Shown here in pieces: positions 3,772-55,403 of a DNA stretch of 64,000 bases (positions are counted from its first letter, which is position 1; every line of letters starts with the position of its first letter). The notes beneath the pieces were generated by a model that was not told the origin of the DNA, did no database searches, and saw only the letters and a list, made by a program, of their open reading frames with translations. Source of the DNA: an uncultured Methanosarcinales archaeon (lineage in GTDB: Archaea > Nanobdellota > Nanobdellia > Woesearchaeales > CAZYIM01); NCBI GenBank assembly GCA_964647565.1, contig CAZYIM010000002.1, positions 32,001-96,000 on the forward strand. The letters run 5' to 3'. The position numbers and the translations under genes are program-made.

Positions 3772-6700
3772 ATAAAAAAAGTAGGTTGGGTTTTAGTTGT
3801 TATTGCATTACTGCTTCTTAGTTCTATCTTCATCTATGCAGATGGTGATGAGGGTGAAGGAGAGGAGAATGAGAATCCTACTGACTTAAACAAGGTCATC
3901 GGCACTCCTGATGACAGGTTTGAGGTTGTGCCTACCAATTTCCAGAACATAGATCTTTTTTCTGGGGAGATTAGCGAGTCAATCCCGCTTTTTAGTTTGT
4001 CTGGCAGATCAGGCATGGGATTTTCGCTCGCTGCAAGCTATACCTCGAATTATGATGCTGAGAAAGAGAACAGCGAGCAGCCTGCTGGCTGGCTTGGACT
4101 TGGCTGGAACTTTGGATTTGGGGCTGTTACTGCGAATACAAAGGGAACCGCTAATTTTGAGGATGACACCTTCTATCTTAATAATGAGAAGCTTATCAAG
4201 ATCCCTGGAACAGAGAACCAGTACAAGCTGAAGAATTATCGTTATGTCAAGATCTTTCGGGTGGTAAAAGACAGCAAGATCAACTATTGGGTTGTCTATA
4301 ATGAGGATGGTTCGATGACCATCTTTGGCCAGGTGCCCAATGCTATTTCATATATGATCGGCAAGGGCGACTGGGTTGGCAATGTCTTTGAGGGTGATAC
4401 TGAGCTTACGCCCACTGCTTGGCATCTCTACCGGCAGTCTGATGGCTTTGGTAATAAAGTGACTTATCAGTATCAGAAGACCGATGAATATCTTAAGTCT
4501 GACAGTTGGCAGTCCAAGTATCCATATACAAAAGCCATCTATCCTAAAAAGGTGATAGATACAATTGGGAGGGAGATTGTGTTTAATCTTGCTAACAAGG
4601 AAATTGATGAATATTACGATCCTTATCCATTTCCAGAGCCAGATTCCTATATAGAGTTTTATGAAGATAAATATCTGGACAACATTGTTGTCTATAATCC
4701 AGATAAGACTCAGTCACAATCTGTGACATTTGAATATGAGCTGGTTGGAAGTGGTCAGTTCAAGAAGAGGCTTTTAAAATCAATAACCAAGTCTATATAT
4801 AATGGCGGCCAATGGAATCCGCTTCCAAAGACAGTCTTTAACTATAATGCTGTTTCTGAGTTAAAGCCTGCGGCTCTTAAGAAGATCGAGCATCCTACAG
4901 GCGGTTCGACAGAGTACCAATATAAGGAACAGGAGTTGGCTTACACCAAGCTTGACGGTTCGCTTCAACAAGATCAGACTCAGGTCGGTTATCTTGGCAA
5001 CAACTATATGGTTGTCAAGCATGGTTCTGTTAAAAGCAATAACTATTATTTCCTTGGGAAATATTCTGTTGCCAGAGACATCAGTGTGTATAACTGGGAT
5101 GGCCATAAGTGGGCGGACAAGCAGGATTTTGCAATTAGCACTGACAAGAGGAATCTTCACATCCATTCAGGCCCTGATTATTTCCTTGTAAGGCCTGTCC
5201 AGTCTGACGAGTTTACTATGTTCCAACGGCATGGGGATAAATGGGAAAAGGAGACAACTATTAAGTTTGATCACCAGTTTGAGATAAGTGGAAACCTTGA
5301 TCTTGCTGAACAGACCTATGTTACAGAGAAAGAGATTTCAGTCTATCCGATGCAGGACAATCTTTTCTTGGTCTATGGTAGGAATCATCATAAGGTCAAG
5401 GCATATCATAAGAAGCTGAATGCTCAGAACAGAGTTGAATGGAGTCAGGTTACTCTTCCTAAGCATCAGTTCTCTGGTTATGTCAGAGTCTGGCCAAGCA
5501 ATAATTTCTTTGTGCTCAGACATGGTTCTGAAGGAAAGAAGATTGATGTCTATAACTGGGAGAATGACAAATGGATCAGGAAGAACAATGCAATGAATAT
5601 CGGTGCTGGAGTCATGGATGTTACTGTCGGAGATGATTTCTTCATAATAACAGATGCAGACAAGAAACTGCATATCTATGAGTTCAAGGGTGATTCATGG
5701 GTTGAGGTCCAAAATAAAAATTTGGCTAATAGCCATCTGGCCAAGGTCTCTGCTGGAAATAACTTTTTTGTATTGGGATATTTTAACGGGGATAATGTAA
5801 AGCTCTTTGAGAGGATTAACAATCATCAGTGGCAGATAGAGTCCTCTGCAAAAACCCTTTTTACATCTTCAAGTGGTCATAAGATCTTTGATGTCTTTGC
5901 TAATAATAAATATATAGCTATTGTCACGAGAAAGAAAACAGATCACAGCCACACATATTATTTTACTGTCTTCAATAAGATCAATAACCAGTGGGTGCAG
6001 AAAAAGACCAATGAGAAAATCGGCAAGGTATTTACTCAGGGTCAGTATCAACTCCAGGAGAACAACTGGAGATATAGCGATATATCTGCCCAGGTCTCTT
6101 TTGGTAAGGATCTGTTGACAGTTTCATTATTGGACACCACGTATCAACAGACAGAGAGTTTTGATGTTATAGCTCCTGATAATCCGATTAATCCTAATTA
6201 TCAGGCTTATCAGAGATGTAATGCTAATTACCAGGCCTGCCTGACACCTTGTGAATCATATAACACCAATTCATATGGTGGTCAGTTCCCATTGCAGGAA
6301 TGCCAGCTTGATTGCGGTTCGTGGAACAATAATACCTTTTGTTTCTCTGTCAATGAATTATACAGCAGTGTTTGTGAAAGTTTTAAGAGCTGCCTGACTG
6401 GATTTGCCAGTTCATGGTCTAATAAGTTATTGAGTTGCCAGAGCCAATGCAAGAGTGATTGCAGCACTGCAGAATCCAACTATGTTCCTGCTGCTAACTA
6501 TCAATATGACCAGTGCAGAAGGGGTTGTGCTGATGCATATGAGTATAACCGGGACGGTTTTAGCTGTGCCAAATGTTTTTGGTCTGATTTAGGTGAAATA
6601 TGTAATTTTGGTGAATGCAGTTGGGATAAATTGGGTGGTGGCGTTAGTGCTGCCAGATGTCATAAGGACCACTATGAGTATCCTCTTTCCAAATATTTGT

Positions 6701-7617
6701 TTAATGTTGGTGGAAGCAAGAAAGCCTATTATTTTGATGGCACTGATTGGCAGGTCCTTGATGACAGTGAGGAGGACATGGCCTTGCAGTTTGAAATAGA
6801 CCAACGGCAAGGAACTTCTGTAGGTTTCTTTGATTCCAGGGTCCTTGAATATGACTATGGTTTTGCTACACCTGAACTTTATTATGATACTATTGCATTG
6901 GCTGGTCCTAAAGTGGATAAGAACAACCTGCCTAAGATGACCAAGTTCTACAAGTCTGCTAAGAACAGGGCAAAGGGCAATGCAGTGACTTATCCAATAC
7001 AATCCAAGATTGTGGATGATGGTATTGGCCAGAAGATTACATATAGTTTTGACTTTGCAGAGGGCAAGCATGACTCAACCTTAAATACTGTTCAGTTCCA
7101 TAAGGCCACTGTTAACATGCCTGCAAATTCAGGTAGGATTGTAAATTATTTCTACAATGGATTGAGCAAGGAGGATGGCAGCCAGTTCCCTGACAAGGTT
7201 GGAGGTCTTAATTTTGAAAAACTAAATGGTCTCACATACAAGTCTGAGACTCTGGCAGCAGACAGCAGCAAGGTTGGAGAGTCCTATAACCAATATGAAA
7301 TTATCAACAAGGGCCACTCGTCTTTCCTTGTACGCGGAACAAAATCAGAGACCAGTGTTGATGGAGTTACTTTGTTTACTGAATACGAGTTTAATGAACT
7401 TAATGGCATGCCTAAGAAGACCATTGTCTATGACGCAAAGAATCCATCTAAGAAGCTCATCACTGAATCAAGATTTGCATTTGAGCAATATCCTGAAATG
7501 AAGGTTTACAATATGCTTACACAGCCCTTTGAGACCAAGACATATATTAATACACAGCTTGTCAGGGTCAATAAGGTTGCATATAAAAATTGGAAAATCA
7601 GCGGAGGCGGTAACTAG
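3772..7617 (+). CDS. Secreted SpvB/TcB-like N-terminal Rhs shell protein with beta-propeller-like repeats and a Cys-rich insertion; probable ATA start
   Basis: IDLFSGEISESIPL...GMGFSLAASY...GWLGLGWNF resembles the SpvB/TcB N-terminus, and YD-type strands are present (DGFGNKVTYQY, HPTGGSTEYQY). The frame is open upstream of the GTG at 3928 and encodes a signal peptide, IKKVGWVLVVIALLLLSSIFIYA|DG. Confidence 0.8.
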   Translation: MKKVGWVLVVIALLLLSSIFIYADGDEGEGEENENPTDLNKVIGTPDDRFEVVPTNFQNIDLFSGEISESIPLFSLSGRSGMGFSLAASYTSNYDAEKENSEQPAGWLGLGWNFGFGAVTANTKGTANFEDDTFYLNNEKLIKIPGTENQYKLKNYRYVKIFRVVKDSKINYWVVYNEDGSMTIFGQVPNAISYMIGKGDWVGNVFEGDTELTPTAWHLYRQSDGFGNKVTYQYQKTDEYLKSDSWQSKYPYTKAIYPKKVIDTIGREIVFNLANKEIDEYYDPYPFPEPDSYIEFYEDKYLDNIVVYNPDKTQSQSVTFEYELVGSGQFKKRLLKSITKSIYNGGQWNPLPKTVFNYNAVSELKPAALKKIEHPTGGSTEYQYKEQELAYTKLDGSLQQDQTQVGYLGNNYMVVKHGSVKSNNYYFLGKYSVARDISVYNWDGHKWADKQDFAISTDKRNLHIHSGPDYFLVRPVQSDEFTMFQRHGDKWEKETTIKFDHQFEISGNLDLAEQTYVTEKEISVYPMQDNLFLVYGRNHHKVKAYHKKLNAQNRVEWSQVTLPKHQFSGYVRVWPSNNFFVLRHGSEGKKIDVYNWENDKWIRKNNAMNIGAGVMDVTVGDDFFIITDADKKLHIYEFKGDSWVEVQNKNLANSHLAKVSAGNNFFVLGYFNGDNVKLFERINNHQWQIESSAKTLFTSSSGHKIFDVFANNKYIAIVTRKKTDHSHTYYFTVFNKINNQWVQKKTNEKIGKVFTQGQYQLQENNWRYSDISAQVSFGKDLLTVSLLDTTYQQTESFDVIAPDNPINPNYQAYQRCNANYQACLTPCESYNTNSYGGQFPLQECQLDCGSWNNNTFCFSVNELYSSVCESFKSCLTGFASSWSNKLLSCQSQCKSDCSTAESNYVPAANYQYDQCRRGCADAYEYNRDGFSCAKCFWSDLGEICNFGECSWDKLGGGVSAARCHKDHYEYPLSKYLFNVGGSKKAYYFDGTDWQVLDDSEEDMALQFEIDQRQGTSVGFFDSRVLEYDYGFATPELYYDTIALAGPKVDKNNLPKMTKFYKSAKNRAKGNAVTYPIQSKIVDDGIGQKITYSFDFAEGKHDSTLNTVQFHKATVNMPANSGRIVNYFYNGLSKEDGSQFPDKVGGLNFEKLNGLTYKSETLAADSSKVGESYNQYEIINKGHSSFLVRGTKSETSVDGVTLFTEYEFNELNGMPKKTIVYDAKNPSKKLITESRFAFEQYPEMKVYNMLTQPFETKTYINTQLVRVNKVAYKNWKISGGGN

Positions 7618-43535: not shown

Positions 43536-43844
43536 ATGGCTGACGAAAAAATTTTGGAGATTTCAGATGACAAGCTTGACAAATACTTTAAGATAACAGG
43601 CGAGGCCTTGGAGATGGCAAGAGCAGCCCCTAAAAGAAAAGACATGCCTGATGAGGCAGAAGATTTTCTGGACATGGCCAATAGATATTACGAGGATGCA
43701 GGACATTTCAGAGAAAAAGGTGATTATGTCAATGCCTTTGCAGCGCTCAACTATGCGCACGGCTGGCTGGATGCAGGTGCCAGGATAGGCTTGTTTGAGG
43801 TCAAGGACAGCAGGTTGTTCACTGTCGATGATGTCGATGACTAG
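43536..43844 (+). CDS. DUF357 family protein
   Basis: DMANRYYEDAGHFREKGDYVNAFAALNYAHGWLDAGARIG. Confidence 0.9.
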   Translation: MADEKILEISDDKLDKYFKITGEALEMARAAPKRKDMPDEAEDFLDMANRYYEDAGHFREKGDYVNAFAALNYAHGWLDAGARIGLFEVKDSRLFTVDDVDD

Positions 43845-44731
43845 AGATGCATCATAAGTGCTAAGTGAGTCAGGTCTGCGGCTTCTTCTACAATCTTTAG
43901 TGCCTGCATCGAGAATCTTGCGCTGGCTGCGTCAAGGTCTTGGATCTTAAGCTGCTTTTCCCTGAGTTTGCTTTTATACGTTATCAGCTCCCAGACCTTT
44001 TTTTGGTTGTTCTGGAAATAGACTTCAAAGGCAAGTTCCAATCCTTTTTGGGACAATAGAAAGAGTTCTTTTATCTGCTTGTCTCTTTTCACATCATATT
44101 TTACACTGGTCCTCCAGGCCCTGAAGATCTCATCGCCGATCTTTTCAAGTGCAAATGCATAGGCAAAAAGTATCTTGCCGCCTGTTGAGTCTGCATAGGC
44201 ATGCTTGACTATCGACCTTTCAAGAAAAAGCGCGAACTTGTTGATCTCCATGTCCCGCTCCCTTAACTTGTCCATGCTGGCCTTGTTCTCTCCGAATATG
44301 TCCTCGATTGCAGAGTCATAAAACCTGAGTATCATCTGGAAGACCTGCTTAAAGATGGTGTCAAGATTCTCGATTGATGTTCCGCTTATATCCCTTATTG
44401 TATATTTATCCCCTTTCTGCGAGATGACTGCATAGCCGATATTTGTATTGAGGTTCTTGTAGAGCTCGCCGTCAAATTCCAGCTTCATCTCATCAATGCC
44501 TTTTGCATATGCAGCGTTTACATAGGTGTAGGCCATCCGCCTGTGGAATCCCATCATGTTGAGTTTTGTTGAGTCTCCCTTGGCTCTTTTGCCTGACCTT
44601 AGTATCAGGTCTTTTTCATTGATCTCTACATCTATCTCATCGCCCGCCTTTAGGCTGGTCTCCCTTATCCATTGGATGGGCAGGGTTATGGTTATCGCTT
44701 GGTTTGCCTGTTTGATTAGTTTTCTTTTCAT
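43841..44731 (-). CDS. AbrB-domain PhoU-like regulator
   Basis: RKLIKQ...TITLPIQWI...LKAGDEI (AbrB); AAYAKGIDE; LEKIGDE PhoU-like helices. Confidence 0.8.
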   Translation of the reverse strand: MKRKLIKQANQAITITLPIQWIRETSLKAGDEIDVEINEKDLILRSGKRAKGDSTKLNMMGFHRRMAYTYVNAAYAKGIDEMKLEFDGELYKNLNTNIGYAVISQKGDKYTIRDISGTSIENLDTIFKQVFQMILRFYDSAIEDIFGENKASMDKLRERDMEINKFALFLERSIVKHAYADSTGGKILFAYAFALEKIGDEIFRAWRTSVKYDVKRDKQIKELFLLSQKGLELAFEVYFQNNQKKVWELITYKSKLREKQLKIQDLDAASARFSMQALKIVEEAADLTHLALMMHL

Positions 44732-46124: not shown

Positions 46125-46436
46125 ATGAAGCAAAAACAGGTTCACTCTCCCACTCTGAAGACAGTTATGATGGTTGAGGATGTGCTTAAGAACATGGATG
46201 AGAGTGTTATAACTGTCGCTGAACTGAAACGAAGATTGCCCAGGCAGGTGAATCATAATACTCTAAAAGAGATACTGGATTACCTGGACAAGAGCAATAA
46301 AATATATATGAATGTTAAGGGTATAACATGGTTGGTCAATGATAGTCCCAAAATGAGAGAAGCTATACGGAAAGGAGTCAAGTATGATCCAGAAAAATTC
46401 CGTAAAAAGTTAGGCAATTCTTATAAATCCATTTGA
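46125..46436 (+). CDS. Small wHTH-like protein, putative antitoxin
   Basis: SPTLKTVMMVE...LKRRLPRQV...ILDYLDKSNKI; immediately upstream of a RelE-like gene. Confidence 0.65.
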   Translation: MKQKQVHSPTLKTVMMVEDVLKNMDESVITVAELKRRLPRQVNHNTLKEILDYLDKSNKIYMNVKGITWLVNDSPKMREAIRKGVKYDPEKFRKKLGNSYKSI

Positions 46437-46470
46437 TGCTGGCTAAGATATGCGATAGGTCACTTCAATA

Positions 46471-46794
46471 ATGTTTTCTGATGAAGCATCACAAGCATAT
46501 GATGCCTTGGTTAAACATGCAAAAAACTCCAAGAAAGCAAGGATGATCCTTGCAGCCCTTCTTAATAAGCTGGACTTGATATTGGAGAATCCTAGATATG
46601 GGAATCCGTTAGCCAAAAGGTTGATCCCCAAAGAATATAAGCTAAGGTATAAAGCTAAAAATTTATTTCGTGTTGAATTGCCCTGTTTCTGGAGGATGCT
46701 CTATTCCTTAACCAATGATGAGATCGAGATAATAGCTCTTGTGGTTGATGTTGTCGATCATAAGGATTACAACAAGAAATTCAGCTATGACTAA
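46471..46794 (+). CDS. RelE/ParE-like toxin
   Basis: LENPRYG...NLFRVEL..FWRMLYSL...VVDHKDY. Confidence 0.65.
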   Translation: MFSDEASQAYDALVKHAKNSKKARMILAALLNKLDLILENPRYGNPLAKRLIPKEYKLRYKAKNLFRVELPCFWRMLYSLTNDEIEIIALVVDVVDHKDYNKKFSYD

Positions 46795-47345: not shown

Positions 47346-48125
47346 CTATTTCCAATGATGGACCAATAGGTCTATCTCTTTTTTTAACTGCGATGTGATC
47401 TTCCTGACAGCTGCTTTGTCCTTATGTTTACCCCAGAGTTTTTCAATATCCAAGGGATTTCCGAAACGTATATGTATTGTTCCAGGGTGTAATTTATTTT
47501 TTTTGGGTGTTATTACCTTATCTGTTTGTGTAAAAGCGCCTGGAACCAGTGGGACTCCGGCTCCCAGGGCAATCCTGACTGCACCAGTCTTGAACTTGAG
47601 CAGGCCTTTGTGTCTTTCATGATGTGCTTCAGGATATATGACTAGGGTTTCTCCTTTTTTTACCCGTTCAATACATGCCTCGACTACATATTTCCTGTCC
47701 ATACCGACCTTGAAAGCCTTTTTGTCCTTTTCATCCCTGATTACCGGAAAATATCCCAGGTTGGAGACCCATGCCTGCAAAAAAGGATGTGGGATAGCAT
47801 CAAAGGGTTCTGTAATCACAAAGAAATACCTGTCAAGTGTGGCGATCAGTGAAAGGGTATCGCTAAGGCTTCTATGATTCATTGCAATAACGCAAGGCCC
47901 TTTTGGCAGGAGTTCTTTATTCTGGGTTTTGACCTTGATAAAGCAAAAGGCAAAAGATATTGTTAGACATAGTTTGCCAAGCTTCTTCCAGATATAATGT
48001 TTATTTTTTGTTTTATAAAACAGAGTTACAATATATCCGAGAAACAGAAACAGTCCAAGAATTAATCCTGTAATTATTTTTAGATATGAATTTTGCAGGT
48101 GTAATAGGAATTTTGAGTGTTTCAT
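47346..48125 (-). CDS. plsC: 1-acyl-sn-glycerol-3-phosphate acyltransferase (PlsC family)
   Basis: NHRSLSD (HX4D), FPVIR, IYPEA, KFKTGAVRIA..AGVPLVP; N-terminal TM segment. Confidence 0.85.
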   Translation of the reverse strand: MKHSKFLLHLQNSYLKIITGLILGLFLFLGYIVTLFYKTKNKHYIWKKLGKLCLTISFAFCFIKVKTQNKELLPKGPCVIAMNHRSLSDTLSLIATLDRYFFVITEPFDAIPHPFLQAWVSNLGYFPVIRDEKDKKAFKVGMDRKYVVEACIERVKKGETLVIYPEAHHERHKGLLKFKTGAVRIALGAGVPLVPGAFTQTDKVITPKKNKLHPGTIHIRFGNPLDIEKLWGKHKDKAAVRKITSQLKKEIDLLVHHWK

Positions 48126-49264
48126 TTTTTGAAAAACAGTTCAATCACATCTTTTTCAGATGGAGGGCATTCGTCCAAATGCTTATAGTGGTTTTTTTCT
48201 GCAAATTCCTTTGTGCAATGACCGATGCAATAAACATTCTTAAGATATTCATCCGGGATGTTGGCTTTATTTACTTTTCCAATTATTATGGCTGTCTTCT
48301 TAAAAAAGTACCTATTCAGAAGCTTGGCAAGATAGATTGGATTTTTCATTGCACTCTTTTTAATGAATTCGACTGCCCTGCCGCAGCAATTGCAGGGTTT
48401 GCCTTTTTCCATATAGACAAACAGCTTGCCAAAGTGGAAGCTTACTTCGCTCGAAGGCTCATAAGGCGTTTTGAATTTATTGATAAGTGCATGTTGGGTA
48501 TAGAATTTGCCGGCACCTATGTCTTTTGCAAGTTTTAAGTGTTTTACAGTGCTTGGATCAATACCTATTAAAGCGCTGGTAATTGAGTCTGTTTCCACTA
48601 TGTTGGTGCCTGCTATTAAGATGTTGCTTTTTTTGCTCTTGCCCCAGTGCGGCCCTTTGCCTTCCATACCCACAATGCCGTCCACAATGCAGAGATCTGG
48701 CTTTAAAACTGTTGATAGATAGGCGATGTTCTTGTCCAGATCCTCTCTATGATACCTCATTCTCTCAGGCTCAGGTACTATGCCCATCTGGTTTTTTAGG
48801 CAGAGGGATACTTCTGTGACAAAATGGGTTTTTATCTTTGCAATGTTAATATAATGGTCAACACTATTCATCAGGTCCGGAATCTCCAGTGTCACACCCC
48901 TGATCTTTTTTTTGATTATCGGGCCTTTTTCAAGATCTACAATAGTAACATTTTCATATTTTTCAAAGCGTCTGTATCCTGAGTTCCTGATAATATCATC
49001 AAATGTATAAGATTTGTCAGAAGGACCAAGATTGTTGGTCTCTGCTATTATTATTTTGCAATTGAATCCTTTTAAGAAATTTATAATCGCTTCAATTATT
49101 AGTGGCTCGGTTATTTCAGACTCATTTTTAGGTTTGATGGCGCATAGATTTGGCTTTAGTAAGACTGTAGAGTTTTTTTTCGGCTCCCAGCCTACAAAAT
49201 TTATTAGTTCTGAGATCTTTTTCTTTATTTCCCTCTTTTTACAACTAACTACAGATATAGTCAT
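48122..49264 (-). CDS. DUF362 family protein with C-terminal Cys cluster
   Basis: VLLKPNL, INIAKIKTH...SLCLKNQMG, IVDGIVGMEGKGP..G; PCNCC, IGHC, ECPP. Confidence 0.88.
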   Translation of the reverse strand: MTISVVSCKKREIKKKISELINFVGWEPKKNSTVLLKPNLCAIKPKNESEITEPLIIEAIINFLKGFNCKIIIAETNNLGPSDKSYTFDDIIRNSGYRRFEKYENVTIVDLEKGPIIKKKIRGVTLEIPDLMNSVDHYINIAKIKTHFVTEVSLCLKNQMGIVPEPERMRYHREDLDKNIAYLSTVLKPDLCIVDGIVGMEGKGPHWGKSKKSNILIAGTNIVETDSITSALIGIDPSTVKHLKLAKDIGAGKFYTQHALINKFKTPYEPSSEVSFHFGKLFVYMEKGKPCNCCGRAVEFIKKSAMKNPIYLAKLLNRYFFKKTAIIIGKVNKANIPDEYLKNVYCIGHCTKEFAEKNHYKHLDECPPSEKDVIELFFKK

Positions 49265-49390: not shown

Positions 49391-51412
49391 ATGAGTGTAA
49401 ATCAGGAAGTAAAGGATGTAAAATCTATCAATATAAAGAATTTTATAACTGCTCTTGAACATATGCATCCTGACATCTCTTCAGTTGTGGATCCTGTTTA
49501 TGCGCTTTACACAAAAGAGTATATTGACGATCCAAATACCTGGACTGGAACTCAGCCAGTATTAGACCTGTTTACCAGGTATAAAGAGTTTGTGAATGTC
49601 AAGCATCCTAGTGTGATATTTGATGTTGGCATTAAGACCTCTAAATTAAGGGCTATTGGTAAGCTGGAAAACTTAGTTCGATTTGTGGGCCGACCGAGAG
49701 TGGCTTTCTCTCAGATCCCCAATTATAACAAGCACTTTAACAACATCTTTGATATGGAAGTACATAACCTGACTGGCAGTTCTGCAACTTTAATTGTAAA
49801 CTATATTCCCAGAAAAGAAAATATCTGGACTTATGAACAATGCTGGTGGAACAGGGGCATCATTGCCTCGATTCCGCAACTTTGGAATCTTCCCAATGCA
49901 GAGTATAAGGAAGTATTATGTTTCTATACCCCTGAGAAGATTGCACAGAGCACAGGCCTCAATATCCATACTCAAGGGACTGACCTATTTATTGATGATA
50001 AAAAGATCGGAGAAAAGGTACTGCTTAAGAAGGATATGGTCACTACCAAACACCTTCCTTTTCGATTGACTAAAAAATCAGACAGGCCAAAGTTATTTGG
50101 TAGTGAATATGAGATGTTTGATGCATCAGTCCACACCAATGAGCCTTCTGGCTATTTGATTACTGAGGATGTGGAACTTGAAGACAAATTATTGCTTGAA
50201 AAGGGTGTGATCATTGGAGCACCTTATTGCCGATATGAATTCACCTGGAAAAACAAGAACTTCTTCAAGAACCTTTATGATTTGACCATAGGAAAATTTA
50301 AAGAATTAAAAAAGACCAGTTTTGCACTTGAAGAGCAATTGAATTATTCTCAGCAGCAATTCTTCCAGATTGAGAACTTGCTTAACAAGGAGAAGGAATT
50401 GACAGCCGAACTGACTGAGCATAAAGAACATTTGGAGGAGATGGTTGAAAAACGCACCGATCAGTATAAGTCTGAGAAAGAGCGTGCCGAAAATGCACTC
50501 GATGAGTTGAAGGCGGCTCAAGATCAGATCATCAAAGCAGAGGTTTCTGCGGCTGAGAAGGCAGAACAGTTAAGGACTTCAGAGATCCTATCAGGAGGTA
50601 TTGCACATGAGTTGGGTAATGCCCTTACCGGCGCAAATCAATTGTTGGATCATGTCTTGAACTATAAAGGAGATAAATCCATGGTCCAGGTCATCTATGA
50701 CCAGATATCTCAATTCGCTAGTGTAATCAAGAAACTGACTAAGGACTATAATGTTCCAAATGAGGTTATATCTTCAGAGATCATTCCTGGATTGATGGAG
50801 ATAGTAAATATTATTGATCCTTCCCAAAACAATAAGAAGAACAAGAAACCTTTGGAGAAAGTTCTTGAGACAGTCAAAATGGGTGTTGAAAGGTCTTTAA
50901 GGATAAAAGAGCAGTTCAAGGATTATTCATTATTGCAAAGACAGGTCAAAGGCACTACGCCTGTTAATATGCGGGACTTGTTGAATTCTGTAATTGACAG
51001 TTGTTCACCACAATTAGAACAATATGACATAACATATCTTGTTCATGCCATTGAGGAAAATTATACTATGATCGGTGATCGTGACCAACTTTATTCAGTG
51101 CTCTCAAACCCGGTCTTGAATTCAATCTATGCTGTAAGAGACACAGAAACAAGAAAGATTGACCTAACTCTAGAATCTGAAAAATTTAATGGTGACACAT
51201 TCTTGAAATATATTGTAGAAGATACTGGCTGTGGTATCCCTCAAGATAAGCAAAAAAGGATTTTCGATCCATTGTTTTCAACCAAGGGTGTTGAGGGTAC
51301 TGGTCTGGGCCTGAGCATTGTCAAGAGGATTGTTGATCTTTACGATGGTGTGATAGAGTTCGATTCAAAAGAAGATGAAGGCAGCAAGTTCACTTTCTAC
51401 CTAAAACAATAA
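49391..51412 (+). CDS. Soluble sensor histidine kinase with V4R/HNOB-like N-terminal domain
   Basis: H-box GIAHELGNAL; N-box SNPVLNS; G-boxes DTGCGIP, IFDPLFSTK, GTGLGL. N-terminal CWWNRG...EVLC...GAPYCRYEFTW. No TM segment. Confidence 0.88.
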   Translation: MSVNQEVKDVKSINIKNFITALEHMHPDISSVVDPVYALYTKEYIDDPNTWTGTQPVLDLFTRYKEFVNVKHPSVIFDVGIKTSKLRAIGKLENLVRFVGRPRVAFSQIPNYNKHFNNIFDMEVHNLTGSSATLIVNYIPRKENIWTYEQCWWNRGIIASIPQLWNLPNAEYKEVLCFYTPEKIAQSTGLNIHTQGTDLFIDDKKIGEKVLLKKDMVTTKHLPFRLTKKSDRPKLFGSEYEMFDASVHTNEPSGYLITEDVELEDKLLLEKGVIIGAPYCRYEFTWKNKNFFKNLYDLTIGKFKELKKTSFALEEQLNYSQQQFFQIENLLNKEKELTAELTEHKEHLEEMVEKRTDQYKSEKERAENALDELKAAQDQIIKAEVSAAEKAEQLRTSEILSGGIAHELGNALTGANQLLDHVLNYKGDKSMVQVIYDQISQFASVIKKLTKDYNVPNEVISSEIIPGLMEIVNIIDPSQNNKKNKKPLEKVLETVKMGVERSLRIKEQFKDYSLLQRQVKGTTPVNMRDLLNSVIDSCSPQLEQYDITYLVHAIEENYTMIGDRDQLYSVLSNPVLNSIYAVRDTETRKIDLTLESEKFNGDTFLKYIVEDTGCGIPQDKQKRIFDPLFSTKGVEGTGLGLSIVKRIVDLYDGVIEFDSKEDEGSKFTFYLKQ

Positions 51413-52804
51413 CTATTTTTGGTTGTAGACTGGATCTGAGAATTCCCTGACAATATAGATGCCTTGGTGCGGTATTAGAAGGTCGAAGTCGTGTGTCGGT
51501 ATGTTGCTTTTCACGATATAGGTTTTCAATAATGGCCGGACCTCTTCTATCTTCTTATTTGATTTTGAGATTACAGATGTGACCAGGTTCTTCTGCATCT
51601 GGTTGTCTTTTAGATCCCTGTCGATCAAGGATTCAAGTTCATCTAAGTCTGAGTATGATCTTACACCAACTATTGGCCCGGGATATTCCATTGTTGTGTC
51701 ATATTTGTTCAAAGGAATTATGGAGGTATGCAGCAGCTCTCTTTCACCTTCGACACTTAGATTAAGATATCCGCTCTTGCCTCTCTTGACCAGCTCGCCT
51801 TTGATGAAATCAATGTTTCCAGAATCCACTAATCCGATTTTGGACTCATCAAAAGGATCGCCTGATCGATATTTTAATGCTTCCTTATTCAATCTGTCCA
51901 AAAGCTTATCATATTTCTCTTCATGCGCATATATTATATCAGTTGATTCACATTCATTTCCTGCGTTGACAGTTATTGACTCCATCAACAATTTCATATT
52001 CATCTCATCAACATCTGCATCATCAAGAAGAACACTAATGCTCAAACCAGTACCATAACCAATTACCCTTCTTGGAGTACAGTTTTCCCTTATCTCTGCC
52101 TCTACTTTTTTCACAGTATTGTCATCTCCAAAGAAGATGTAGTTCCAACCATCAACGCATAATTTTTCTAGAAAACCACTATCTGCAGGAGTATTTATGA
52201 CTGAAACTGCATTCTTTAATGGATATAATTCTTTTTGATTCAGCTTGTCTATAGTCTTGTTGAGAGCTAGGACAAATTCATTAGAGTTATATGCGCCTGC
52301 CCCTTTGCTTGAGGGTCTTAGTATTGTGGCGTTCCTTGACAATAGGTTTTGAGCAACAACATAAAGCATGACTTGTTCTGAGTTGCTGGGCAGAATTGTT
52401 ACAATTGGTGCAGTGTTTCGATAAGTGATATTACCTTTTTCTAAAGCTCTGCCCAAAAATCCCTCCGCGCAAAAACACCAATTTTTTACAAAATCCATGC
52501 CCTCCCTAACAAAATTAATTGGGCTTCCATTTAGTTTTACAATAGTTTCATATTTAGTTTTATTATGGAAATAATTATGCATGGTGTCTTCCAATAATCT
52601 ACGTACATTTGCCATAGGTATCTTTCCTAACTCTCTTTGGACTTTGTTAGCATTCTTAATTGCAGACATCAGTTCATAGTCATTGACATCATGTACTTCG
52701 AGCATTGGATTGCCATTGTAATCATTGAGAATTCTCCTTAACGCTTTAGGAGACTTCCTGAATTCTCCGTTGACATAGCTTGGGATTTGTTTGAGTCGTA
52801 TCAT
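51413..52804 (-). CDS. Aldehyde-dehydrogenase-fold acyl reductase (LuxC-like)
   Basis: SYVNGEF, ILPSN, ILRPSS, FFG, NAGNECES (catalytic Cys position), EYPGP. Confidence 0.7.
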   Translation of the reverse strand: MIRLKQIPSYVNGEFRKSPKALRRILNDYNGNPMLEVHDVNDYELMSAIKNANKVQRELGKIPMANVRRLLEDTMHNYFHNKTKYETIVKLNGSPINFVREGMDFVKNWCFCAEGFLGRALEKGNITYRNTAPIVTILPSNSEQVMLYVVAQNLLSRNATILRPSSKGAGAYNSNEFVLALNKTIDKLNQKELYPLKNAVSVINTPADSGFLEKLCVDGWNYIFFGDDNTVKKVEAEIRENCTPRRVIGYGTGLSISVLLDDADVDEMNMKLLMESITVNAGNECESTDIIYAHEEKYDKLLDRLNKEALKYRSGDPFDESKIGLVDSGNIDFIKGELVKRGKSGYLNLSVEGERELLHTSIIPLNKYDTTMEYPGPIVGVRSYSDLDELESLIDRDLKDNQMQKNLVTSVISKSNKKIEEVRPLLKTYIVKSNIPTHDFDLLIPHQGIYIVREFSDPVYNQK

Positions 52805-52805
52805 C

Positions 52806-54032
52806 TTAGTTTATCTGGCAGCCGTGCAGGGCTTTGCCTTTGTGAAATCCTAATCGCTTGATATCATATAATATAGGTGTATTTCTGCCGCATTTACATT
52901 CAAGGCCATTCTTGCTAAGCTTTGCACCATCTCCAGTCATGTAGTTGATGAAGTACATTCCTGAGGGCACCACATTGTTGCCTTTTTTGTCTGTTCCTGC
53001 AATCTTTGAAGTTAGAGTATAACCTGATTCATTGGGTTTGGCTAATCCTGGTTTTTCCAGGCTCTTAATCAGCACGAGCGATTGGCCCAGGGTCAGATGG
53101 AAATTCCTCATCTTCGCAGAACATGTTGCTGCTGTAGGACAAACTTCTGTACTTCCGAAATGGCCTTTGATATAAGGGACCTGCAGATCATCTTTAAGAT
53201 AATCCAGCAATCCTTCTGAGATTGGCATGCTTGACCAGTAAGCGAACTTAAAATCTGGATTATGTTTGTGGCTTAAATCCCATTCGGGATTTCTGTTTTT
53301 GGCATCAAGCTCTAAGATGTCAACAAGGAAGGAACCTTTTTGACGATATTCTCCTTCGGGGGGTGCCAATATTCCATTTACTTTGAATGTTTGAGACATA
53401 TCATATAGATCTACAATATCTGCTGTTGCAGAGGGTCTTCCAAAAATCTGGCCTCCCAGTCTATGAAACATGTTGCCGTAAATGTGATTAGTTATATGGT
53501 CTCCGTGATATGCTCCAAGAATTCTCATTCCCACCATCGGAGTCTTCCTTGCTTCAATGCCTTCGAATTTGAACTTGCCTTTCTTGAATTCGATATCAGG
53601 TGTTTTGGGATCCATATAGAAGTCAAACTCTATATGCCTGTTGGCAGTTATTGACATTCCCCGCCAGTCTTCCATGGAGTGGAATATCTTGATTGGCTTT
53701 CCAGTACTGCCACCTGTGCCAAAAGACCAGAATTCGCCATGGTTTGGATCTATCTCTCTTTTTACCTCTGGCACAAATGCAAACTGGCTGTTCTTTGACA
53801 AGTGTTCCTTAGTCAGATATGGGATCATGTCCGCGAACTCGTCCATTGAGGATATCTTCTGGATATCTGCTTGGGATAGGTGCTTGTAATGCTCCTTGAA
53901 GAAAGGCACATTTTCCTTAGCAAAGAGCACTGTTGGGATTACTTGTTCATTTAGAATTACTTTATCTCTATCTTCTGGTTTGGCAGTATCCCACCAAAAA
54001 TCACTGAACTTGGGCGAGTTTAGTTTTTCCAT
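52806..54032 (-). CDS. Acyl-adenylating enzyme, LuxE/PaaK-like
   Basis: FAKENVPFF, PYLTKEHL, GTGGSTGKP, FGSTEV, NYMTGD, CKCGR; ends ...ALHGCQIN. Confidence 0.75.
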   Translation of the reverse strand: MEKLNSPKFSDFWWDTAKPEDRDKVILNEQVIPTVLFAKENVPFFKEHYKHLSQADIQKISSMDEFADMIPYLTKEHLSKNSQFAFVPEVKREIDPNHGEFWSFGTGGSTGKPIKIFHSMEDWRGMSITANRHIEFDFYMDPKTPDIEFKKGKFKFEGIEARKTPMVGMRILGAYHGDHITNHIYGNMFHRLGGQIFGRPSATADIVDLYDMSQTFKVNGILAPPEGEYRQKGSFLVDILELDAKNRNPEWDLSHKHNPDFKFAYWSSMPISEGLLDYLKDDLQVPYIKGHFGSTEVCPTAATCSAKMRNFHLTLGQSLVLIKSLEKPGLAKPNESGYTLTSKIAGTDKKGNNVVPSGMYFINYMTGDGAKLSKNGLECKCGRNTPILYDIKRLGFHKGKALHGCQIN

Positions 54033-54033
54033 C

Positions 54034-55311
54034 TTATTTCTTGGTGATATTTATCCTTTGAGATAGTTTATAATCCAGATAATGCGGATGCGGATCCTTT
54101 GATACTATCTCTCTGTATTCAGGCTGTCGTTTTAAGAATGAAAAAACTTTATCAGGATGAGTCACTGAATATTCAATAGTATCCCCGAATTGATCCAAGA
54201 CTTCAGATAATTCCTCTTGTGTCAATGAAGCTTGGATAGTATTGACCAGGTCTTGTCTAACATGCTTGTTGGTTGCCAATAGTCTTTGGCTTAAGTAGTT
54301 GTCATCAATATCTTCTCTTCTGTAATCAGATATATACATGGAGCCGCCAGGTTTCAGACAGTCAAGACCAGATTTAAAGAATGCTTTCAATGTTGCATCT
54401 TTAAAATGATGCATAGAGTTTTGGCAGACCACGAGATCTGCATCTTTTAAGGTTTCCAGTGATTGCCCAAGATTTAAAAGATCGCATATTTCAAAGCTTA
54501 AACTTTTTTCTGAGTGTTTATTCTTTGCAAAATCTATCATATAATTTGATCCGTCAACACCTATGACACTAGAGGATTGATATTTTGCTAAATTCAATGA
54601 AAGGTCTCCTGGGCCTGAACAGAAATCCAATATTTTTTTACCTTTCAATCCAAAAAGATTATTTATTTCCATTGCAAAAAGGATATAGTCTGAGTTTTCT
54701 GGATAGCTGCAGCCATAGGCATATCGTACAGCCTCTCCCAGGTCTGCGATGGAGTGATCTTCTAACACTCGTTTAATGTCATCATCTATATCGAATTGCA
54801 TGGAAAAATCAAGTAGATTGTTTTTTTCATTCGGATCAGACACATATTCAAAGAACCGTTTTCGTCTTAGTTCAATGAACTTGTCATATGCACGCTTGAC
54901 TTCTTTTTTTAAGATTGCATCATCGCCTTTTTCTACAAACGAGAACAGTCCGTGTTCAGATGTAAGGATCTCCTTGGTCTTATAGTCTGCAGGATGTGCA
55001 GTGTATAGGATCTTTATAGAATTAGGGCTTTTTTTCTGGAGCTCTTTGGTCAGCTGGATTCCATCCATACCAGGCATCCTGACATCGATGATGATTACAC
55101 CTTTGTTATCATCAAGCTTTTTTAAGGCCTCTTCTCCGCTGATGGCATATTCAATCTTGTATTCTGGTAATATGACGCCTATACTGTCTCTTATGATCTG
55201 GTCATCGTCAACCACTAATATCTCTGGCTCTTCATTGATATCATGAATTTCCTTTTTTTCAACTTCTTCTGCATCGGACAGCAATTCAGCTAAATCTTTA
55301 TTCATTTTCAA
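54034..55311 (-). CDS. Response-regulator receiver fused to a class I SAM methyltransferase
   Basis: REC: ILVVDDD, IIDVRMPGMDG, YTAH, VEK. MTase: ILDFCSGPG, GVDGS, SMHHF, LKPGG...SDYRR. Confidence 0.85.
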   Translation of the reverse strand: MKMNKDLAELLSDAEEVEKKEIHDINEEPEILVVDDDQIIRDSIGVILPEYKIEYAISGEEALKKLDDNKGVIIIDVRMPGMDGIQLTKELQKKSPNSIKILYTAHPADYKTKEILTSEHGLFSFVEKGDDAILKKEVKRAYDKFIELRRKRFFEYVSDPNEKNNLLDFSMQFDIDDDIKRVLEDHSIADLGEAVRYAYGCSYPENSDYILFAMEINNLFGLKGKKILDFCSGPGDLSLNLAKYQSSSVIGVDGSNYMIDFAKNKHSEKSLSFEICDLLNLGQSLETLKDADLVVCQNSMHHFKDATLKAFFKSGLDCLKPGGSMYISDYRREDIDDNYLSQRLLATNKHVRQDLVNTIQASLTQEELSEVLDQFGDTIEYSVTHPDKVFSFLKRQPEYREIVSKDPHPHYLDYKLSQRINITKK

Positions 55312-55403
55312 CCACCTTTGCCATTAAATATTGTACTTAGATAAACCGGATTAGTTTATAAACATTTCTATAGATAGTCACTTGAGAGTGGTTTTTAATA
55401 GAA

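Follow-up and report, generated by a model that had tools for sequence, protein, structure and literature searches.

Why would an archaeon keep, in one tightly packed gene cluster, two enzymes built like the LuxE/LuxC acid-reducing pair of luminous bacteria together with several proteins of sensor type? The question is raised by a locus of an uncultured Methanosarcinales archaeon (GTDB lineage Nanobdellota, Woesearchaeales; assembly GCA_964647565.1), which lies in a stretch of 64,000 nucleotides (nt) of contig CAZYIM010000002.1 (positions 32,001 to 96,000 of the forward strand). This whole stretch was analysed and is called the window here. In the best explanation that we can offer, which we rate a little above even, the minus-strand cluster from 59740 to 51413 and a convergent kinase gene form one module, in which an adenylate-forming enzyme (the adenylase) and a partner of the aldehyde dehydrogenase (ALDH) fold would reduce a carboxylic acid to an aldehyde by way of an acyl thioester on Cys405 of the adenylase. 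This reduction would be coupled to sensing and, in this archaeon, to a methylation controlled by a histidine kinase (HK) and a receiver (REC) domain. The genes of the module are as follows.

49391..51412, plus strand: soluble HK of 673 residues, with a Pfam HATPase_c domain and no transmembrane segment
51413..52804, minus strand: ALDH-fold, LuxC-like putative acyl-thioester reductase of 463 residues (Pfam Aldedh and LuxC)
52806..54032, minus strand: truncated PaaK-like adenylate-forming enzyme of 408 residues, with a weak Pfam AMP-binding match and a predicted PaaK-type fold
54034..55311, minus strand: fusion of a REC domain and a class-I S-adenosylmethionine (SAM) methyltransferase, 425 residues from a TTG start with an ATG two codons on (Pfam Response_reg and methyltransferase)
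55404..56726, minus strand: FIST_N and FIST_C protein, copy 1, of 440 residues (Pfam)
56796..58115, minus strand: FIST_N and FIST_C protein, copy 2, of 439 residues (Pfam), a tandem duplicate of copy 1
58144..58617, minus strand: protein of 157 residues, probably a stand-alone V4R-like ligand-binding protein (a lead from an atlas feature search; no Pfam match)
58666..59364, minus strand: single-domain KaiC-like ATPase of 232 residues (Pfam PF06745, 3.8e-52; NCBIfam KaiC_arch_3, 137.9 bits)
59366..59740, minus strand: small membrane protein of 124 residues, 1 nt upstream of the KaiC-like gene, with a Kyte-Doolittle (KD) maximum over 19 residues of 3.09

The first four of these genes had been singled out by an earlier, sequence-only reading as a signalling circuit, and their positions, strands and spacings were all confirmed from the list of open reading frames (ORFs). 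The REC-methyltransferase, adenylase and ALDH-fold genes are separated by gaps of 1 nt, and the stop codons of the ALDH-fold and HK genes abut at the point of convergence, with 0 nt between them. The residues on which that reading relied were also present in the translations, namely the HGCQIN end of the adenylase (Cys405), the NAGNEC motif of the ALDH-fold protein (Cys285) and the series C151, E174, C177, C280, Y282 and W286 in the N-terminal part of the kinase. Five further genes of the same orientation follow upstream of the REC-methyltransferase gene, spaced by 1-92 nt. Scans of the window for tRNAs and Rfam families gave no match. Among the matches listed for sequencing datasets covering positions 51413-56726 there was no RNA dataset; the eight listed were DNA runs from two studies, labelled as marine or seawater metagenomes.

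The evidence for the proposed chemistry begins with the adenylase. This protein has a P-loop (residues 105-113) and the motifs GSTE (293-296), GD (367-368) and CxCGR (379-383); the names P-loop, GSTE, GD and GR follow the ANL literature. It stops 25 residues past the hinge residue R383 and ends in K400...G404-C405-QIN, with the Cys at position 405 of 408. The absence of a PaaK-type C-terminal domain, noted in the sequence-only reading, was thus borne out: these 25 residues stand where PaaK-type ligases have some 100 residues, forming a subdomain whose catalytic Lys serves adenylation and thioesterification with coenzyme A (CoA). The family is rare, with 45 proteins at E ≤ 0.001 in an index of 5.8 billion proteins. 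In an alignment of 21 family members, T106-G107-G108, G293/T295/E296, G367-D368, C304, C379, C381 and C405 were invariant, and T110, P113, R383, K400 and G404 nearly so. All 21 sequences end about 25 residues past the CxCGR hinge, and the terminal Cys, whose conservation the sequence-only reading had set as a check on its proposal, was present in 21/21. A near-terminal Cys was also kept in all 15 adenylase sequences of the loci compared. Four divergent adenylases from the same order (22-28% identity) have retained CxCGR and a Cys within their last 3-6 residues. Across the relatives, the tail after the hinge Arg varies in length from 22 to about 50 residues.

By sequence, the adenylase resembles PaaK-type ligases over their N-terminal 130 residues or so only (matches in NCBIfam and in the PDB, the latter including HCL and PaaK), and its NCBIfam matches to DVU_1553, FlxY and F390 synthetase span residues ~25-126. 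An AlphaFold2 (AF2) model, with a predicted local distance difference test (pLDDT) score of 88, was matched by Foldseek to ClxA, BT_0428, PaaK1, NatL2/AjiA1 and 2-hydroxyisobutyryl-CoA ligase (E 6e-20 to 1e-15; template modelling score by query, TMq, 0.61-0.67). The top matches were ClxA (E 6e-20), which is also short at 399 residues, BT_0428 and PaaK1. The modelled fold is that of a PaaK-type adenylation domain. Residues 404-408 had a pLDDT below 50, as is expected of a mobile arm. The adenylase thus has in common with the PaaK family (PaaK1 2y27, BT_0428 4r1l, ClxA 9s3l, NatL2 6tm4 and HCL 6hdw) the N-terminal adenylation fold and the P-loop, GSTE, GD and GR motifs, but it differs in lacking the C-terminal subdomain with the catalytic Lys, and in having an invariant terminal Cys and a CxC before the hinge Arg.

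An adenylation domain of the ANL type with no C-terminal subdomain, and with a short tail carrying a conserved Cys in its place, is the design of LuxE. In PMC9157457, on the LuxE-LuxC pair of Photobacterium phosphoreum, LuxE is described as having no C-terminal subdomain and a motif of about 20 residues instead (TRxxKGCxLS, with Cys364); its Gly-Cys tail presumably moves between the adenylation site and Cys296 of LuxC, transferring the acyl group. The pair of the window is alike in its truncated ANL adenylase, its short Gly-Cys tail, the adjoining ALDH-fold reductase with a catalytic Cys, and the CoA-free route that can be predicted for it, from acyl-adenylate to acyl-S-tail, acyl-S-reductase and aldehyde. 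It is unlike in several respects. The tail of the window family reads K-x3-G-C-Q-[VI]-[DN] and stands at the very end of the protein, in contrast to the TRxxKGCxLS of LuxE; the nearest neighbours in sequence and fold are PaaK-type ligases; the module comprises neither luciferase nor LuxD and is found in an archaeal host; and its partners are FIST, V4R-like and KaiC-like proteins, with the REC-methyltransferase and kinase added in the window.

The ALDH-fold partner passed the cut-offs of two Pfam models, LuxC (PF05893; 40.0 bits, cut-off 21) and Aldedh (65.5 bits). The LuxC side of the earlier proposal was therefore upheld by the comparison of models that it had called for, with the reservations that the match to LuxC spans only residues 126-294 and that Aldedh scored higher. 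In an alignment of 11 sequences, the catalytic C285 of NAGNEC was invariant (11/11), as were N141, E373 and H446-Q447-G448 near the end. A profile alignment to the ALDH 5j77 of the PDB placed 'naGneC' on 'NAGQSC' and 'igyGtG' on 'ilELG-G', by which Tyr250 (GYGTG) is aligned with the general-base Glu of ELGG(K). Position 250 was Tyr in at least 90% of the 11-sequence alignment and Glu in no row. The general-base Glu that hydrolytic ALDHs (Pfam PF00171) need for thioester hydrolysis is thus absent from the ALDH-fold protein, so that hydrolysis of a thioester by this partner is unlikely; the retained Cys and the missing Glu are the features that a thioester reductase would need.

Prediction of a complex between the ALDH-fold protein and the adenylase gave an ipSAE of 0.32 (runs 0.32, 0.36 and 0.10), with 0.00 for the best of three controls; contacts agreed between runs to at least 93%, and partner pLDDT was at least 85. 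This result was rated as weak support, a mark reached by 116 of 157 solved complexes and by 2 of 215 mismatches; scores of 0.60 or lower account for only 18 of the 157 solved complexes, and for the two mismatches that reached the mark. The structure of a LuxC-LuxE complex is already known, and likeness to it may contribute to the score.

On this reading the core of the module would be a carboxylic-acid reductase of two proteins, constructed on the LuxE/LuxC plan and independent of CoA. Its first step would be the adenylation of a carboxylic acid, which may be small or aromatic, by the truncated PaaK-like enzyme. The same enzyme would then take up the acyl group on Cys405, as a thioester carried by its flexible C-terminal tail, and from there the acyl group would pass to Cys285 in the ALDH-fold protein, where reduction by NAD(P)H would yield the aldehyde. 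In its genomic setting this core is tied to ligand-binding or signalling proteins (FIST, the small V4R-like protein, the KaiC-like ATPase and the small membrane protein). The sub-clade to which the window belongs has two additions: the SAM methyltransferase would modify the substrate or the product, and the kinase with its sensor of H-NOX/V4R type, together with the fused REC domain, would place this methylation under phosphorylation control. The end product may serve as a signal or as a metabolite. Of all this, gene order, domains, conserved residues, folds and co-conservation are shown by the data; the chemical steps and the direction in which they run, the ligand, the phosphotransfer from kinase to REC and the nature of the output are inferred from them.

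The co-conservation of these genes was assessed in 17 related loci with usable flanks, from species genomes (L001-L004), metagenomes (L006-L014) and genomes of the same order (L026-L029), by blastp with the window proteins and by Pfam; several of the loci without FIST have short flanks, and two further loci (L015, L016), which end inside the adenylase gene, were left out of the counts. The adenylase and ALDH-fold genes were adjacent in 16 of the 17 loci and in one cluster in all of them. Their commonest partner was FIST, present in 9/17 loci (L007, L008, L010, L011, L012, L026, L027, L028 and L029). The V4R-like protein was found in 4/17 (L007, L026, L028, L029) and a KaiC-like gene likewise in 4/17 (L007, L026 and L029, and farther off in L028). 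A methyltransferase was encoded in 4/17, without REC in L001 and L002 and with REC in L006 and L007, and an HK-type gene lay beside the module in 3/17 (L006, L007, L028); in L001, a PAS-HisKA fragment lies two genes upstream of its methyltransferase. The full gene order of the window is repeated in L007. In L029 the order is membrane protein-KaiC...V4R-like-FIST-adenylase-ALDH, with neither methyltransferase nor kinase, and the homologue of the small membrane protein upstream of KaiC is 67% identical in L029 and 56% in L007. Recurrence of the gene set in other genomes indicates more than chance. In archaea the conserved core reads (KaiC)-V4R-like-FIST-adenylase-ALDH, with methyltransferase and kinase as accessories of one sub-clade. 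The four-gene set that the sequence-only reading took for the unit is, by these counts and by the orders in L007 and L029, a sub-clade elaboration of a larger core, and the FIST, V4R-like and KaiC-like partners had been missed.

Two of the related loci have an additional ORF of no clear family and with no counterpart in the window, located between the adenylase and FIST genes in L026 (8332-8790) and between the KaiC and V4R-like genes in L007 (2765-3229); these ORFs encode 152-154 residues. In L006, the block of REC-methyltransferase, adenylase, ALDH and kinase genes ends with a gene of the rve integrase/transposase type (9757-10728), which fits a mobile enzyme-plus-kinase block.

Both FIST copies were above the Pfam cut-offs (PF08495 and PF10442), with 64.5 and 57.9 bits for FIST_N and 44.1 and 38.0 bits for FIST_C. 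They are the only FIST genes in the assembly. The copies are 62% identical and are sisters at 98/98 support, which marks them, on sequence comparison, as recent tandem duplicates. In the FIST alignment (A4), H245, C376, R379, R380 and E411 were invariant. For the FIST domain of human FBXO22, covalent binding of aldehydes at Cys326, next to Glu362, is reported (bioRxiv 10.1101/2025.08.29.673087). The spacing of Cys376 and Glu411 in the archaeal proteins (35 residues) almost equals that of this pair, and the two may be equivalent; a search of the PDB with the FIST profile A4 at E ≤ 10 returned no FBXO22 chain. The NosP model (NCBIfam NF041558) gave 39.8 bits for copy 1 and 51.9 bits for the other copy, against an equivalog cut-off of 450. 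As in the NosP-NahK system, a stand-alone FIST_N and FIST_C protein of about 440 residues is encoded near a soluble histidine kinase; unlike in that system, FIST is tied first to the enzyme pair, usually with no kinase, and the window proteins give no evidence of haem.

The 157-residue protein had no Pfam match even at E ≤ 5. The atlas feature search (score 0.92) is a lead only; 17 of its 30 matches were clusters carrying V4R (PF02830). Homologues of this protein in L007, L026, L028 and L029 are encoded inside the module.

A number of observations weigh against a LuxE-like acid reductase with a signalling role. No member of the adenylase family matched Pfam LuxE (PF04443) at E ≤ 1 (0/21), and no protein of the whole genome matched it at E ≤ 0.01; a search of the PDB with the adenylase family profile at E ≤ 1 recovered PaaK-type ligases only and no LuxE chain; and there was no LuxE structure among the 50 fold matches listed for the adenylase. 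Membership of the LuxE family was rejected on these grounds, and the adenylase was not filed as LuxE. The four Cys residues of the adenylase, C304, C379, C381 and C405, are all invariant, so that C405 may belong to a metal site and not to an acyl carrier. A sensor role for FIST is not compelled, as enzymes have this fold too: in FBXO22 it consists of three YjgF-like repeats, with a likeness to chorismatases and cyanuric acid hydrolases (bioRxiv 10.1101/2024.06.03.594717). Most of the related loci lack the methyltransferase and the HK, which are thus not essential to the core. Finally, some bacterial loci of the clade around 60% identity, such as L002, have no signalling genes in their vicinity, which a plain metabolic role fits equally well. 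The likeness to LuxE/LuxC therefore rests on architecture and not on family membership; of the earlier proposal of a LuxE/LuxC-like pair, the architecture and the adjacency of the genes stood, and the assignment of the first enzyme to LuxE did not. We read the adenylase as a LuxE-like design within a branch that is PaaK-like by sequence, predicted to act like LuxE although not a demonstrated member of its family.

The alternative that survives best takes the module for a plain metabolic pathway, of biosynthesis or salvage, in which the FIST and V4R-like proteins would be binding, carrier or catalytic accessories and the kinase and REC domain would tune the methylation. Such a role agrees with five loci (L008, L010, L011, L012, L027) in which FIST, adenylase and ALDH stand alone among housekeeping genes, with no kinase or KaiC in the flanks examined, and with the bacterial loci L001, L002 and L004, in which the pair (with the methyltransferase in the first two) lies beside transporters or unrelated genes. 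The enzyme-like fold of FIST fits it as well, and the invariant H245, C376, R379, R380 and E411 could be catalytic. Less easily accommodated are the recurrence of the KaiC-like ATPase and the V4R-like protein with the module (four loci each), the kinase and REC domain added in the window, and the fact that the FIST proteins characterised so far are sensors (NosP) or recognition domains. Moreover, no chorismate synthase was detected in this 87%-complete genome, whereas it was found in 14/14 control genomes, which leaves a chorismatase-type role of FIST with no visible supply of substrate; FIST as a chorismatase-like source of an aromatic acid was dropped as a candidate. The metabolic pathway is, in our view, a serious but unlikely alternative.

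A second alternative concerns the adenylase itself, which may not be an acyl carrier: its Cys residues would form a metal site, the enzyme would ligate an acid onto an external amine, hydroxyl or thiol, and the ALDH-fold protein would use a free aldehyde or an acyl-CoA. PaaK-family ligases of such a kind are known in ClxA, NatL2 and AjiA1, which together with BT_0428 and PaaK1 were the best fold matches; the likeness in sequence to PaaK-type ligases only and the invariance of all four Cys residues point the same way. A swinging arm, however, fits better than a metal ligand with a tail of variable length whose Cys is fixed near the end and whose terminus is predicted to be disordered. The strict pairing with a Cys-containing ALDH devoid of the general-base Glu is, in addition, what a hand-off of a thioester predicts. 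We regard this external-ligase scheme as improbable, and retain the transfer of an acyl group from Cys405 to the ALDH-fold partner.

The kinase consists of a sensor region (residues 1-310; nt 49391-50320), a coiled coil, an H-box with His406 and a HATPase_c domain (562-672). It can be taken as soluble, as the sequence-only reading had it, because no 19-residue segment exceeds a KD value of 1.15. A word-index search with the sensor region gave only 2 relatives; a HMMER search gave 195 homologues, located at the N-termini of diverse signalling proteins. Its AF2 model (pLDDT 90.8) matched H-NOX domains in Foldseek over about 175 residues (E 1.3e-4; template modelling score by target, TMt, 0.57-0.64; probability 1.0) and, weakly, the phenol sensor MopR (5kbe_B, E 0.06). 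Across the homologues, C151 was conserved in 30/42, E174 in 32/42, and C177 in 29/42; the segment with C280 is present in 30 of the homologues, and the Cys itself in 18 of these. Pfam V4R (PF02830) had no match in the HK at E ≤ 0.1, and its matches in the homologues were sub-threshold (6/42; best 7.5e-5, all below the cut-off of 31 bits). The model supports the placing of the sensor in the H-NOX/V4R fold superfamily, with a Cys/Glu/Cys cluster of V4R type. 'V4R-like' thus describes fold and motif fairly without assigning a family, and to that extent the earlier description was correct.

The same superfamily is shared with the V4R/XylR_N phenol sensors (DmpR, MopR, PoxR), with H-NOX and with MetOD1, a HNOB/V4R-like domain with three conserved Cys that is described in archaeal response regulators (PMC5847659). 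In DmpR, the V4R sensor is reported to bind zinc by Cys151, Glu172, Cys177 and Cys185 beside the phenol pocket (PMC7264223), a site that the Cys/Glu/Cys(/Cys) cluster of the HK resembles. Unlike DmpR, MopR and PoxR, in which the sensor is joined to a sigma-54 activator, the sensor of the window is fused to a histidine kinase, and it has an extra beta-rich subdomain (190-290). It differs from V4R and H-NOX domains in lying beyond the Pfam V4R model and in lacking the proximal His of H-NOX: the equivalent position, H115, which was judged by the order of secondary-structure elements without superposition, is unconserved in the 42 homologues (Lys in 12, Arg in 8). A canonical H-NOX haem sensor was rejected as a candidate for this reason. 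The aromatic-acid-binding fold neighbours of the adenylase and the phenol-sensor-type domain of the kinase give a hint, by analogy, of a small aromatic ligand. That the kinase senses the product of the pathway, as the sequence-only reading proposed, is conjecture.

It is very improbable that the locus senses gas or redox state (nitric oxide or oxygen, by haem) with a NosP-like FIST and an H-NOX-like kinase, the enzymes being unrelated neighbours: although the FIST proteins have weak NosP matches (2.8e-10 and 6e-14), H-NOX domains are the best fold matches of the kinase sensor and NosP proteins are described as working with co-cistronic histidine kinases, the NosP scores fall far below the cut-off, the proximal-His position is unconserved whereas 29-32 of the 42 homologues have C151, E174 and C177, and nine of the 17 loci, most of them lacking a kinase, combine FIST with the enzymes.

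The residues of a two-component pair are intact in the window. The HK has its H-box His406 and HATPase_c, and the REC domain has D35-37, the acceptor D76, T104 and K128; the fused methyltransferase has the SAM motif LDFCSGPG at 228-235. The fusion is rare, with 3 other full-length relatives and 2 methyltransferase-only relatives among the 120 matches listed, and all three loci that carry it (the window, L006 and L007) have an adjacent HK. Only 2 REC domains and about 3 HATPase genes of HK type are encoded in the assembly, which is 87% complete; so small a number of REC domains fits the pairing of the REC-methyltransferase with the adjacent HK. These are circumstantial grounds, drawn from sequence and gene position, for phosphotransfer between the HK and the REC domain of the methyltransferase. 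The only other REC domain is encoded on contig C77 (~278-1799), in a REC-HATPase hybrid (frame of 379 residues) that comes after another gene with HATPase_c, located at the edge of the contig. These genes resemble the REC and REC-HATPase genes downstream of the L006 kinase (7777-9731) and may belong to the same signalling system.

The adenylase of the window was placed by a maximum-likelihood tree in a clade with those of L006, L007 and two Thermodesulfobacteriota metagenome-assembled genomes (MAGs), with 97/99 support. The bacterial members are from a Desulfobacterales MAG (L001; 60% identity) and a Desulfovibrionaceae MAG (51%). This clade, which the window shares with sulfate-reducer MAGs, is exactly the methyltransferase-bearing set. 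The adenylases of L026 and L027, from the same order as the host, formed a separate branch (99/98), and those of L028 and L029 were on long branches of unsure placement. In the FIST tree, L007 grouped with the window, followed by L026/L027. As judged from these trees, the module has a mixed history; the adenylase tree is midpoint-rooted, and no direction of transfer is claimed. The host assembly is 2.68 Mb in 86 contigs (86.9% complete, 1.85% contaminated) and, in a sample of 41 genomes from its order, exceeds the other forty, which are 0.6-2.1 Mb. The epithet 'reduced archaeon' in the sequence-only reading thus suits the lineage more than this genome. As a whole, the interpretation given in that reading is partly supported.

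Outside the module, a radical-SAM protein with a helix-hairpin-helix tail (386 residues) and a DUF4130 protein (187 residues) are encoded at 59856-61567 by genes that overlap by 13 nt and diverge from the module. On the other side, genes for a DUF362 protein (380 residues) and a glycerolipid-type acyltransferase (259 residues), with an overlap of 4 nt, lie on the minus strand at 47346-49264, just upstream of the plus-strand kinase gene; no homologues of this pair were seen in the related loci. Farther away are a ParE-toxin-like ORF (107 residues) behind an ORF of 103 residues (46125-46794), possibly a toxin-antitoxin pair; close to it, a protein of 296 residues with a MazE/AbrB-like N-terminus (43841-44731); and three consecutive long ORFs of 1229, 836 and 469 residues on the plus strand at 3928-11520.

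In a full-text search of the main texts of papers, neither a link between FIST and enzymes of the LuxE/LuxC type nor a description of this cluster came to light, and no paper combined KaiC-like proteins, FIST and archaea. Makarova and co-workers, as cited in PMC5847659, reportedly described KaiC-like ATPases as signalling hubs of archaea in 2017; the single-domain KaiC-like ATPase of the window, clustered with domains of sensor type, is of this pattern. What the window contributes is the layer of REC-methyltransferase and H-NOX/V4R-type kinase, the duplication of FIST, and close bacterial relatives of the enzyme block.

An extension of the favoured reading, bolder and in our judgement improbable, is that the module amounts to an aldehyde-signalling device complete in itself. 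Its LuxCE-like pair would make a reactive intracellular aldehyde, which FIST would detect by a reversible hemithioacetal at Cys376, with Glu411 35 residues on, in the manner reported for aldehydes at Cys326 of human FBXO22; the KaiC-like ATPase and the H-NOX/V4R-type kinase would relay the state, and the REC-gated methyltransferase would close a feedback on the ligand.

For FIST and V4R, two widespread 'sensor' domains, hardly any ligand is known, and KaiC-like proteins are proposed archaeal hubs with no known inputs. In this locus such domains cluster with an enzyme pair of predictable chemistry (acid, ATP and NAD(P)H to aldehyde), which offers a concrete route to a ligand; expression should be less difficult with the bacterial relatives of the enzymes, such as those of the Desulfobacterales MAG. 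Should the prediction for the pair hold, CoA-independent acid reduction of the LuxE/LuxC type would be a general design, reached here from a PaaK-like lineage, and not a speciality of bioluminescence. If aldehyde signalling were also true, FIST would be an aldehyde-sensing domain by ancestry, and an aldehyde would be an archaeal second messenger.

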